59,400 nucleotides of DNA from an uncultured Bacilli bacterium (GCA_944331805.1 CALVIS010000001.1:1-59400), one strand, 5' to 3'. Positions 41,381 to 45,073 are shown, numbered from the stretch's first letter. Numbers and translations: made by a program. Notes: generated from the letters alone by a model not told the origin.

Positions 41381-42598
41381 ATGGATAAACCTCTAGCATT
41401 AAAACTTGCCCCTAATTCTCTAAAAGATGTAATCGGTCAAAAACATTTAGTTGGAGATAATATGATTCTTAGTAATTTAGTAAAGAATAAGAAGTTATTT
41501 TCCATGATTTTATATGGTAAACCTGGTATAGGTAAAACTTCTATTGCCAATGCTATTATTAATGATTTAGGAGTAAGACACAGATTTTTAAATGCAACAG
41601 TTAATTCTAAGAAGGATTTAGATATTGTAATAGAAGAAGCGAAAATGTATGATGGTATTGTTTTAGTTATGGATGAAATACATCGTCTTAATAAAGATAA
41701 ACAAGATATCTTATTACCTTGTTTAGAAAGTGGTCTTATTACACTGATTGGTATGACTACAAGTAATCCGTATCATGCAATTAATCCTGCAATTAGGTCA
41801 CGTTGTCAATTATTTGAACTTAAGGAACTTGAAACAGATGACATTATAGATGGTTTAAAAAGAGCAGTTAAAAGCCCTTATTTACCTAATATCAAGATAG
41901 ATAATGAAACAATTAACTACATTGCTAAACTGTCAGGAAATGACTTAAGATATGCCTATAATCTTTTAGAGATATCTTACTACTCTACTAATGATTTTAA
42001 AATAGATATAGATGTTGTTAAAAAGATTAATAGTAAACCAGTATTTAATGCCGATAAAAATGGTGATGGTTACTATGATATGTTATCTGCTTTTCAAAAA
42101 TCTATTAGAGGAAGTGATGTTGATGCTTCACTACACTATTTAGCAAGATTAATTGAGATAGGAGACTTAGATAGTATCTTTAGACGTATGTCTGTTATTG
42201 CTTATGAAGATATAGGACTAGCTAATCCCTCTATTGGTCCTAAAGTAATGGCAGCCATTGATGCCGCAAAATTAGTAGGTTTGCCGGAAGCTAGAATTCC
42301 TTTAGGTACTATTGTTACAGAAATGGCTCTATCCCCTAAAAGTAATACTGCCCATATCGCTTTAGATGAAGCTTTAAGTGACATAGAAAAAGGTAATGTA
42401 GGTGATATTCCTAAACACTTAAAGAATCCAAGTGATACTTATAAATATCCTCATGACTATAAAAACGCTTTTGTTAAACAACAATACTTACCAGATAAGT
42501 TAAAGAATAAGAAGTATTATCATCCTAAAGATTTAGGATATGAACACAAACTAAAGGCGATATATTTATACTTAGAAAAACAAAAGAAGGAAAACTAA
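41381..42598 (+). CDS. rarA: replication-associated recombination protein A
   Basis: LRPxxLxDviGQ-type N-terminus (LAPNSLKDVIGQKHL), Walker A GKPGIGKTS, VLVMDEIHRLNK, and C-terminal MgsA domain (SAFQKSIRGSDVDASLHYLARL). Confidence 0.92.
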   Translation: MDKPLALKLAPNSLKDVIGQKHLVGDNMILSNLVKNKKLFSMILYGKPGIGKTSIANAIINDLGVRHRFLNATVNSKKDLDIVIEEAKMYDGIVLVMDEIHRLNKDKQDILLPCLESGLITLIGMTTSNPYHAINPAIRSRCQLFELKELETDDIIDGLKRAVKSPYLPNIKIDNETINYIAKLSGNDLRYAYNLLEISYYSTNDFKIDIDVVKKINSKPVFNADKNGDGYYDMLSAFQKSIRGSDVDASLHYLARLIEIGDLDSIFRRMSVIAYEDIGLANPSIGPKVMAAIDAAKLVGLPEARIPLGTIVTEMALSPKSNTAHIALDEALSDIEKGNVGDIPKHLKNPSDTYKYPHDYKNAFVKQQYLPDKLKNKKYYHPKDLGYEHKLKAIYLYLEKQKKEN

Positions 42599-43506
42599 GC
42601 TCCTTCTTTTTCATATAATAGATTAAGTGAATAATCTATAATCTTTTCTTTTCTTAATTTTAACATAGTCTTATAAAATTCTTTTCTTATATCAGATATT
42701 CCTTCCACTTCATCAATAATTTTATTAATCTCGTCTAAATCTATTCTTCGTCCTATTCTTTTTAATCCTTCATTACAGTCTTTATTTTCAAGAGAACTTA
42801 TATAATTAAAATAATTAATTTTCTTGTCATTAATTTTCAAAATAGAATTAGGAAAAACATATATTCTTGCCTCTATCTCCTTAGGATCATTTAATATTTT
42901 CTTCATTTCTTCATCAGTCAGTGCAGGATACAAACAACTACAGCAATCATATATAGGTGCTATTTCACTAGTTTTGTTTACATCATCTAATAATAATCCC
43001 CAATTACCATTATGCCGGTCAAAATTACCTAAAAAAGCATCAGTAATAAACATATCCCAATAAAATGACTTTAAGATGGAAGGATTAATATTCTCTTGTT
43101 CTTCTATTGCCTCTAAAACACTAGATAGTTCTACACCAAAGCCGTTTTCACTTGATGAAACAATACCATTTTTTATCTCAGCAAATTTAAATAATTTCTT
43201 ATTATCTGTTTCAAAATCTTTACATAACACACATAATTTATCTTTACCATCAACTGTATAAATACCAAGCTTAGTATCTTGGGTATTAAAACCCAAACAT
43301 TTAAATATTAAACATCCTATATGTTCTGAAATACATCCATTAGTATAATACTTATCTTTTGTATTGTTATTTTTTACAGGAGGTGTTTTTAGCATATATT
43401 TAGTTCCATGCTCATCTAAAAGACATATCTTATTCCCATTTCTACCATCATAGTATTTAAATTTATTTATTTCATAGTTATTAAAATTATATAACATCTT
43501 TATCAT
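42595..43506 (-). CDS. HipA-like serine/threonine kinase domain protein
   Basis: GRNGNKICLLDEHGTKYMLK (Gly-rich loop plus Lys), catalytic loop FLGNFDRHNGNWGLL, and IAPIYDCCS. These match the HipA C-terminal kinase pattern (N.DdH.rN ... LaPaYDl.s). The start is ambiguous: 43509, 43506 or 43497. Confidence 0.6.
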   Translation of the reverse strand: MIKMLYNFNNYEINKFKYYDGRNGNKICLLDEHGTKYMLKTPPVKNNNTKDKYYTNGCISEHIGCLIFKCLGFNTQDTKLGIYTVDGKDKLCVLCKDFETDNKKLFKFAEIKNGIVSSSENGFGVELSSVLEAIEEQENINPSILKSFYWDMFITDAFLGNFDRHNGNWGLLLDDVNKTSEIAPIYDCCSCLYPALTDEEMKKILNDPKEIEARIYVFPNSILKINDKKINYFNYISSLENKDCNEGLKRIGRRIDLDEINKIIDEVEGISDIRKEFYKTMLKLRKEKIIDYSLNLLYEKEGA

Positions 43507-43774
43507 CACTTTCCTTGCAACTTAATAATAAATACTTTTCTCTTAAATGATCAGCATGTTCTTCACTAATTTGTCCATCCCAGTAGGCTCCATTAATAGA
43601 ACCATATACTTCGTCCATTAAACAATCAAGTAGTGTACTATTTTCTTTAATTCCTTTTAATAAAGCTTTAATATCATTCTCAAGATATTTAGGAAGATTA
43701 ACATCATACATATCTTTTTCAAAAACAGTAACAGGAAATGTCCCTTGTCTTGTTTTAATATAATTATTACCCAT
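43487..43774 (-). CDS. hypothetical 95-aa protein overlapping the kinase start
   Basis: Its stop overlaps the kinase start region. No HTH is visible. Helical, acidic C-terminus. Confidence 0.45.
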   Translation of the reverse strand: MGNNYIKTRQGTFPVTVFEKDMYDVNLPKYLENDIKALLKGIKENSTLLDCLMDEVYGSINGAYWDGQISEEHADHLREKYLLLSCKESDDKDVI

Positions 43775-43819
43775 AATTTATCAACTCTCTTTAATATATT
43801 ATATCAAATAAATTATTAT

Positions 43820-45073
43820 TTAACATAGTGTTTTCTTCCTAACTTTAGCATCTTTTAATTCTTTTTGTCTTTTAATAGAACCATAAAGTATTCCTTTTAA
43901 TAATGGCATTCCTTTTTCTTCAATATCATTAACGGCATTTTTTAAATCACTATTAGTAAAAGTAATATTCTTACGAAGGCATAATAAATGCCCTTTAAGT
44001 TTAATAATGTTAAGTTCTTTTTCATTTAAAACTTCAAATAAACTATAAAACTTCTCTACATATCTTAATATTAAAGTACTATTTTTTAAATTAGGAAGTT
44101 CTTTTGCAATTTTAGCGATATATAGAAGATTATAATTATTAGAATAATATTTATATAAATCAAGTGGTTCTTTAAATTTATCTTTACTTAATAGTTTAAT
44201 ATCTCTAATTACTTCTTCTGCTACTTGTCTATATAAATCAATATAGTAATTATATATGTACCATATATTTTCTCTATTATTTGCAATTTCATAAATTAAA
44301 TTTTTATTCATCTTTAATATAGAAGAAAATACTATATTATTTAGATTGTAATAAGATATAAAATTCTTAAATTCTTGAGAGCTTTTATTACTTAAAATAT
44401 TAATTAATTCTATATTAGTATAGTCTCTTGTTCTAATAGCCTTTTTTTGTAACTTATTTTGTTCACTTTTTCTCATTCTATTAGCATTTCTATATATTTT
44501 TCTTTTGTATTTACTCACTATATCATGATATTGATAATATAAAGGATGTTTTCTATTTTTTAAGATATAAATATATAGTGCATAATCTTTATTATTAATA
44601 TGAGTCTTTTTTAAAGCATCGTCCTCATTATAAACATCATTATCTATAAATAGTTGTACTGCTGTTTTAGCACAAATAAAATCTAGATCATAATTTAATT
44701 CTTCTTTTACATTTAAAGAATTAATTTCATTTATAGCTTTTAATATTTTATCTTGATAAACACCATTCTTACTATAGACATTAAACATTTTCTTAATAGA
44801 TTTTAAAGTAGTATTATATGTATCTTTTATTTCTTCTATACTCTTATTATTAATTAAATCATTAACAATATTGCTTATATTTCTAAGAGCATTGATATAA
44901 GTGAGTCTTTCAACATTATAATAGAAAGTAGATAATTTAATATTATAATATCTAGTATTAAAAATTTCTGTAAATTCTCTTTTTAATTTTAATAGTTCTT
45001 CTATACTACCTGCATTATTCATAGAAACTAAAAGATTATTCTTTACCATCTCTTCATTATCTCTAATAGACAT
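43820..45073 (-). CDS. helical Lys/Asn-rich protein, distant third member of the 22470/24248 family
   Basis: 417 aa. C-terminus VNDIEEKGMPLLKGILYGSIKRQ parallels LNYLGVKDIPLYTKVYKQALKRH. RKHPLYYQYHDI parallels NNPLYLQIKEKI. RBS AAAGGAGA. Confidence 0.5.
   Translation of the reverse strand: MSIRDNEEMVKNNLLVSMNNAGSIEELLKLKREFTEIFNTRYYNIKLSTFYYNVERLTYINALRNISNIVNDLINNKSIEEIKDTYNTTLKSIKKMFNVYSKNGVYQDKILKAINEINSLNVKEELNYDLDFICAKTAVQLFIDNDVYNEDDALKKTHINNKDYALYIYILKNRKHPLYYQYHDIVSKYKRKIYRNANRMRKSEQNKLQKKAIRTRDYTNIELINILSNKSSQEFKNFISYYNLNNIVFSSILKMNKNLIYEIANNRENIWYIYNYYIDLYRQVAEEVIRDIKLLSKDKFKEPLDLYKYYSNNYNLLYIAKIAKELPNLKNSTLILRYVEKFYSLFEVLNEKELNIIKLKGHLLCLRKNITFTNSDLKNAVNDIEEKGMPLLKGILYGSIKRQKELKDAKVRKKTLC

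Follow-up and report, generated by a model that had tools for sequence, protein, structure and literature searches.

A CtkA-type kinase and its three-helix partner as a candidate toxin-antitoxin-like cassette in a gut Bacilli genome

HipA-type kinases are a model for bacterial persistence and, increasingly, for phage defence, and each new type of partner found with them (HipB, HipS, HipN and HipR) has revealed a different form of kinase control. The locus described here lies in a 59,400-nt stretch of DNA (GCA_944331805.1 CALVIS010000001.1:1-59400; hereafter the window, to whose positions all coordinates refer) from the metagenome-assembled genome (MAG) of a low-GC uncultured gut Bacilli bacterium that counts Candidatus Onthousia among its relatives. 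It consists of two overlapping minus-strand genes, encoding a 95-aa partner protein (43487-43774) and a predicted kinase of the CtkA family (42595-43509; a 304-aa open reading frame, ORF), which form a self-contained cassette inserted between the gene for a 417-aa protein and a terminator shared with the convergent gene rarA. The pair is interpreted below as probably a toxin-antitoxin-like or abortive-defence system. An earlier annotation of the same DNA, referred to as the original prediction, had instead outlined a kinase toxin module of three genes beginning with that for the 417-aa protein.

Closest described systems

In HipBA of Escherichia coli K-12, as in the window, a small upstream gene precedes a HipA-superfamily kinase, and long relatives of the window partner carry an XRE-type helix-turn-helix (HTH) as HipB does. 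However, the window kinase has no HipA N-subdomain-1 and its Gly-rich loop is placed already at residues 22-27; furthermore, the part of the partner associated with the kinase is a three-helix domain dissimilar to HipB, and the window locus encodes no HTH. Like the window locus, HipBST (e.g., in E. coli O127 and Legionella) has a short kinase that lacks the N-subdomain, directly preceded by a small gene that overlaps it. The window partner is nevertheless all-helical, not beta-rich, and bears no similarity to the HipA N-domain; a third gene, for HipB, is missing from the window locus, and the kinase has no significant sequence similarity to HipT (E 0.8).

The hipIN system, which corresponds to the PADLOC candidate PDC-M03, pairs a short HipI kinase with a downstream HipS-HIRAN protein (Gerdes et al. 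2021, clade XI; PMC13245101; PMC8262856). The window kinase has the same core-kinase-only architecture (279-321 aa) and is matched over its full length by PDC-M03A models (PDLC04340, E 4.3e-31, residues 7-293 against 4-275 of 280), but no HIRAN partner accompanies it: the convergent rarA lies downstream, the neighbouring proteins have no PADLOC match, and the window partner is encoded upstream and is unrelated to the HIRAN component. The nearest described layout is that of hipRG, which in the available part of Gerdes et al. (2021) combines a short HipG kinase with an upstream HTH/Stl-like HipR and is represented by five modules only; the resemblance, an HTH-plus-helical protein followed by a short kinase, is one of description only. 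On sequence grounds, the window kinase is not a canonical HipA, because it lacks the N-subdomain, nor a HipT with its HipS, nor a complete PDC-M03/hipIN system, because the HIRAN partner is missing.

The closest characterised relative of the kinase is CtkA (JHP0940) of Helicobacter pylori (PDB 3AKJ, 3AKK and 3AKL), with E 9e-78, 264 bits and ~50% identity to 3AKJ in an alignment of residues 8-294 of 304 with residues 5-286 of 325. The two proteins are alike in full-length homology, in identical motifs and as cargo of mobile DNA. They differ in that CtkA has a C-terminal extension of ~25 residues that is absent from the window kinase, and in that the window kinase has Cys in place of Gly after the Mg-binding Asp; moreover, the window locus has no type IV secretion system (T4SS) nearby and belongs to the small genome of a commensal gut member of the Bacilli. 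A small upstream partner of CtkA is not described in the papers searched on CtkA and HipA, or on JHP0940 and toxin-antitoxin systems. Neither CtkA nor Helicobacter appears in the main text of Gerdes et al. (2021), and the CtkA-type motif DRHNGN was not found in the available part of their Table S1.

A CtkA-type kinase and its partner family

The HipA-superfamily kinase pattern attributed to the 304-aa protein by the original prediction was found in full. It comprises a Gly-rich loop (G22-x-N-G-N-K27), K41 within YMLK, the catalytic motif D164-R-H-N-G-N and the Mg-binding D188 within APIYDCCS. These motifs align without gaps to those of CtkA, the catalytic loop GNFDRHNGNWG and the Mg-binding IAPIxDC being identical, and G22, N24, G25, K27, K41, D164-RHNGN and D188 are invariant across 15 diverse homologues. 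PDC-M03A was matched at E 4e-31, and Pfam HipA_C (PF07804) scored 26.4 bits against a cut-off of 30.5 (E 6.4e-6), with the match starting at residue 33. Most homologues of the kinase carry a precomputed PF07804 match. No match to the HipA N-terminal subdomain was obtained on the kinase, which has the core kinase domain only. The family contains 5147 homologues at E<=1e-3, mostly from gut-metagenome Clostridia and Bacilli, and some of these are named 'CtkA family protein'. The 304-aa protein is thereby classed as a CtkA-family short HipA-superfamily Ser/Thr kinase of predicted activity; the earlier comparison with HipT holds for its short length, but the nearest characterised relative is CtkA.

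One residue sets the window copy apart. Directly after the Mg-binding D188-C189, at a DFG-like position, residue 190 is Cys (codon TGT, 42940-42942, minus strand), whereas Gly occupies this position in 107 of 120 homologues and also in relatives of the kinase that are 99% identical to it. The Cys190 copy may be an attenuated toxin allele or a polymorphism of the MAG.

The 95-aa partner has no match in Pfam, NCBIfam, PADLOC or PHROGs, and a word-based search returned only 16 close relatives. Its conserved domain of ~65 residues (residues ~24-82 of the window partner) consists of three helices and has the motif LPxYLxxD...LDCLxxEvYGSINxA...IsEExAdxLRxKYL, in which L27, D50, N61 and Y81 are invariant among 58 partners. 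An AlphaFold2 (AF2) model built from the partner-family alignment places the helices at residues 29-43, 49-65 and 71-82, with pLDDT of 85-96 over residues 21-80; the N-terminal hairpin (residues 1-23) is weakly predicted. When this model was compared with the PDB using Foldseek, only generic three-helix bundles were returned (e.g., ribosomal bS20 and MIT domains; all E >0.1), and the partner profile matched no PDB sequence. HipS and HipB were considered as identities for the protein and were ruled out by the absent profile matches together with the three-helix-bundle model, in line with the earlier statement that it resembles neither.

The partner family occurs in two forms. The long form (~140-185 aa) joins an N-terminal Cro/C1-type XRE HTH (Pfam HTH_26, above threshold) to the ~65-residue domain at its C-terminus, and the short form (~70-96 aa) is the C-terminal domain alone. 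In alignment with a 155-aa long partner, the window partner is 46% identical to residues 87-145 (E 1e-16), and its E-value against the partner-family profile is 9e-34. A profile built on short partners retrieved 725 clusters (339 at E<=1e-10) from 1.84 billion representative proteins, and in nearly all of the best 150 of these 725 the three-helix domain is C-terminal. The lack of a HipB-type HTH antitoxin, as originally proposed, is therefore true of the window locus but not of the family, since most relatives' partners carry the HTH, which is absent in ~30% of loci and at the window locus. The 95-aa protein is classed from these similarities as an HTH-less form of a conserved partner family that usually bears an HTH, and as neither HipB nor HipS; the long partners are HipB-like in architecture, with a C-terminal domain that is not HipB-like.

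The association of partner and kinase was surveyed at 80 genome loci encoding CtkA-like kinases by listing the ORFs at each. In 79 loci the kinase start lies no more than a few tens of bases from the end of a gene on the same strand; the lone exception has a disrupted kinase, and all 79 upstream proteins fall into one BLAST cluster that includes the window partner. The 95-aa protein is thus no isolated oddity: a domain homologous to it is encoded directly 5' of 79 of 80 CtkA-like kinases. Partner and kinase profiles were also searched against an unselected sample of 399 genomes of the class. This yielded 14 strong partner matches and 11 high-scoring CtkA-type kinases (E<1e-100), and ten of these partners and ten of these kinases are direct neighbours, the partner being upstream; the one kinase left (G265) is preceded by a divergent HTH-plus-partner gene that scored under the profile threshold. 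About 25 more distant kinases of the HipA/CtkA fold in these genomes have no three-helix partner, and four HTH-plus-partner proteins occur without a kinase. By these profile and cluster assignments, the three-helix partner accompanies essentially every kinase of the CtkA clade.

The pair is also found on plasmids and beside genes of conjugative elements. Plasmid pCfviMP1 of Campylobacter fetus (L081, 3754-5741) encodes a 68-aa partner with the same motif, then the kinase, then Fic; therefore, the pair crosses phyla. On a Megamonas funiformis plasmid (NZ_CP048628.1; L082, 3356-4936) an AbiEi-like protein (PADLOC E 3e-58) precedes the kinase in place of the three-helix partner, and the kinase adjoins VbhA-Fic pairs, ArdA and SSB. 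Recurrent neighbours of the kinase in Clostridia are the conjugative-element genes for a MobL relaxase, a VirB4-like ATPase, an M23 peptidase, a serine recombinase and a Toprim primase. The cargo slot of ICEHptfs3 in which ctkA resides in H. pylori is filled in other cases by fic or by AbiEii/AbiEi-like genes (PMC5536186; PMC12443045). The Fic and AbiEi-like neighbours on the plasmids echo, by analogy, this ctkA/fic/AbiE slot.

Two further observations concern the partner domain outside the pair. Stand-alone HTH-plus-three-helix proteins of 130-148 aa, with no kinase 3' of them, are encoded at L092 (G285:C31), L093 (G320:C8) and L094 (G353:C13). Such kinase-less genes fit an orphan-antitoxin pattern, and they may be orphan antitoxins or independent regulators. 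In several other clusters (P0171, L060, P0254, P0280 and P0172) the domain is fused in frame behind unrelated enzymes, which are peptidase-E-like, histidine phosphatase, metallophosphatase and NUDIX-like. These fusions suggest a tendency of the cassette to insert at or in the 3' ends of resident genes; the window cassette likewise begins 13 nt after a resident stop codon.

The cassette and its resident neighbours

The limits of the cassette were obtained by aligning filled sites (the window and L090) with empty sites (L088, L091 and L083). The empty site in L088 reads ...TGTTAAATAATAATTTATT|AAGT|GAAAAAGAAGGAGATTAGTTTTCCTTCTTTT..., and the filled site in the window reads ...TGTTAAATAATAATTTATT|TGATATAATATATTAAAGAGAGTTGATAAATTATG...[partner, kinase]...CTATTATAT|GAAAAAGAAGGAGCTTAGTTTTCCTTCTTTT.... 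The minus-strand insert is ~1193 bp long (~1.19 kb; 43806-42614) and replaces about 3 nt of a resident 31-bp spacer. It begins with a putative promoter at its very left edge, the extended -10 element TGATATAAT (43798-43806, minus strand; a consensus match only, in AT-rich DNA), and a ribosome-binding site (RBS), continues through the partner gene and ends at kinase codon 298 (Tyr-298). Resident sequence supplies the remainder of the kinase gene, namely five codons (EKEGA) and the stop, and also the terminator. The latter is a hairpin (42582-42610) that is able to terminate in both directions, is common to the kinase gene and the convergent rarA, and is unchanged in empty sites. The stop codons of these two genes overlap. 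Neither repeats nor recombinase genes were found flanking the insert. The overlap between partner and kinase genes is 11-23 nt depending on the choice of kinase start, which is likely to be ATG 43506 (303 aa; RBS AAGGA 5 nt 5') or ATG 43497.

Comparison with related genomes indicates how the cassette spreads and decays. Identity between the window and MAGs L001 and L002 is 97-100% from ~44400 to ~42300, and this tract of ~2.1 kb (42300-44400) reaches from the last third of the 417-aa gene across the cassette into the 3' end of rarA. Its flanks are 75-95% identical to the same two MAGs, with dS of 0.23-0.35. A near-identical tract amid diverged flanks shows that the cassette passed recently between diverged genomes by homologous recombination of the flanks. 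Relative to G006, at dS ~0.25, the partner has a dN/dS of 0.079 and the kinase one of 0.081, and both genes are therefore maintained by purifying selection. A full kinase orthologue is present in only 3 of 25 same-genus genomes, the window genome included; several others have kinase fragments with stops, and G020 retains at the same site a degraded partner remnant and kinase residues 163-206 only. Gain, lateral spread, purifying selection while present and decay make up the life cycle expected of toxin-antitoxin or defence cassettes.

Upstream of the cassette, the original prediction had described a holA terminator and a strong RBS ahead of three minus-strand genes, the last two overlapping. 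These features are present. The holA gene ends at 45137 (minus strand), and its terminator (45120-45149, minus strand; -12 kcal/mol, z -4.0), a 12-bp hairpin followed by a U-run, belongs to the resident DNA and delimits the unit upstream. A promoter-like element, TTGATA-16 nt-TGTTATAAT (TTGATA-16-TATAAT) with a TG extension (11 of 12 matches plus TG), lies at 45101-45128 on the minus strand, in resident DNA 5' of the 417-aa gene, and the RBS sequence AAAGGAGA precedes the start codon of that gene (ATG 45073, minus strand). The three ORFs are those of the 417-aa gene (43820-45073, minus strand), the partner and the kinase. No terminator was found between the 417-aa gene and the partner gene, so the 417-aa gene may be co-transcribed with the kinase module.

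The 417-aa gene is nonetheless a resident bystander and no component of the kinase module, because it is found between holA and rarA in relatives without the pair. The kinase pair is missing at this site in Candidatus Onthousia faecipullorum and other relatives, where alaS, holA, the 417-aa homologue and the convergent rarA follow one another. Only ~31 bp separate the homologue (72% identical) from rarA (96% identical) in G014, and G024 is similar. Conversely, 77 other kinase loci have no 417-aa homologue, the exceptions being the three closest relatives (L001-L003). The three-gene module thus reduces to two genes. The 417-aa family is specific to the genus (19 of 24 genomes of the genus have homologues, and none of 16 other genera does), often occurs as two or three tandem paralogues (G016:C1:236879-240524, G021:C39, G015:C17 and G013:C29), and evolves with dN/dS of 0.30-0.40 compared with 0.05-0.18 for holA and rarA.

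The assignment of the 417-aa protein to an uncharacterised helical family is borne out: its AF2 model is all-helical (pLDDT 87), the model has no fold match in the PDB, and the protein has no match in Pfam, NCBIfam, PADLOC or PHROGs. The further claim that this family extends to other genes of the window was not upheld. BLAST found no paralogue of the protein in the window, and hhalign gave probabilities of 0.2% for a 335/354-aa pair and 20% for a 590/601-aa pair. Another 417-aa ORF in the window (33528-34781) is exonuclease VII XseA.

The neighbourhood shows additional variability. The interval of holA, the 417-aa gene and rarA is an insertion hotspot: a TnpB/IS605-type gene lies 5' of the 417-aa homologue in some Onthousia contigs (L085/L086, 3655-4803), and a 479-aa ORF and a duplicated rarA 3' fragment stand beside the cassette or its remnant in L003 and L089 (G020:C6). 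This 479-aa ORF, at the same site in two relatives, has no informative family match. Between rarA and mutS (39314-41399), the 335-aa and 354-aa proteins are tandem paralogues (~32% identity) of a family that is lineage-restricted among the genomes examined, and this is the most variable stretch of the neighbourhood, with 62-75% nucleotide identity to close relatives.

Proposed function and its alternatives

We consider, with a probability of roughly 0.6, that the CtkA-type kinase and its three-helix partner constitute a toxin-antitoxin-like or abortive-defence pair. The pair has generic traits of type II toxin-antitoxin systems, i.e., small co-oriented overlapping genes, patchy distribution and mobility, and the original description of a non-canonical kinase toxin module fits a short HipA-superfamily kinase whose overlapping partner is neither HipB nor HipS. 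In the proposed mechanism, the three-helix domain would bind the kinase and hold it inactive. Depletion or displacement of the partner would then allow the kinase to phosphorylate an essential bacterial target and stop growth; by analogy with HipA and HipT, this target might be a translation factor such as an aminoacyl-tRNA synthetase. In long relatives, the fused XRE HTH would add autorepression. Because the window partner lacks the HTH, expression at this locus would depend on the extended -10 cassette promoter together with transcription that reads through from the 417-aa gene. The 417-aa protein itself would play no part.

Several points weigh against this interpretation. H. pylori CtkA has been described as a host-directed proinflammatory kinase and not as a bacterial toxin (PMC5536186; PMC12443045). 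Neither adjacency nor co-inheritance demonstrates that the kinase is inhibited, and the partner could instead be an activator, a substrate or a chaperone. In addition, with the near-invariant Gly lost to Cys190, the window copy of the kinase may be attenuated, which is speculation from one substitution. Finally, the cassette promoter TGATATAAT is a consensus match only in AT-rich DNA, where 34 such sites occur against 30 expected.

The CtkA literature (PMC5536186; PMC12443045) also underlies an alternative in which the kinase is a transferred or secreted effector (e.g., exported by a conjugative T4SS) and the partner its secretion chaperone, adaptor or immunity protein. The frequent location of the kinases on conjugative elements and plasmids, beside ArdA, SSB and VbhA-Fic, would suit such a role. 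However, the window cassette sits between housekeeping genes with no secretion genes nearby, its kinase lacks the C-terminal extension of CtkA and ends five codons into resident DNA, and the DNA-binding HTH of long partners is typical of antitoxins, not of chaperones; we regard an effector as unlikely. Similarly improbable is a non-toxic regulatory kinase whose subunit targets it, activates it or is phosphorylated by it, with no role in addiction or defence. Strong purifying selection on both genes is compatible with regulation, as are the conserved polar residues D50, E55 and N61 of the partner and a near-conserved Ser in GSIN that is a possible phospho-acceptor. Patchiness, decay, recent lateral exchange, residence on mobile elements and the swap for an AbiEi-like partner are, in contrast, hallmarks of selfish or defence genes and not of core signalling.

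A three-component system with the 417-aa helical protein as sensor or regulator would account for three genes between two terminators, with none between the 417-aa gene and the partner, and for the inclusion of the 3' third of the 417-aa gene in the recombination tract. It is largely refuted by the empty sites and seems very improbable: the homologue occupies the same site without the pair in G014, G024, Candidatus Onthousia faecipullorum and others, 19 of 24 same-genus genomes have it but only 3 of 25 have the kinase orthologue, the 77 other kinase loci do without it, and it evolves several times faster than the pair. The toxin-antitoxin-like reading can also be extended beyond the window, as a tentative proposal that we hold at somewhat below even odds. 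Under this proposal the whole CtkA clade, including the 'cell-translocating kinase' of H. pylori, would primarily supply the toxins of a new toxin-antitoxin or phage-defence family within the HipA superfamily, with the undescribed three-helix domain, with or without an XRE HTH, as antitoxin. Its cassettes would be carried on integrative and conjugative elements (ICEs) and plasmids and spread between chromosomes by recombination of flanks, and the host effects of CtkA would be secondary.

As a clean natural experiment, the locus can be seen empty, filled and decayed within one genus, and the cassette lies on a tract that recombined recently. It adds a nucleotide-level comparison of sites, that tract, estimates of selection and the bystander status of the large upstream gene. 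More broadly, the partner domain, which lies outside Pfam, NCBIfam, PADLOC, PHROGs and solved structures, is tied to a kinase clade that numbers >5000 homologues, the majority from gut Bacillota. If the partner is indeed an antitoxin, a new mechanism of neutralisation would be added to those of HipA-type kinases, and CtkA of H. pylori, studied only as a host-directed virulence-associated kinase, would be suggested to belong to a bacterial toxin-antitoxin family.

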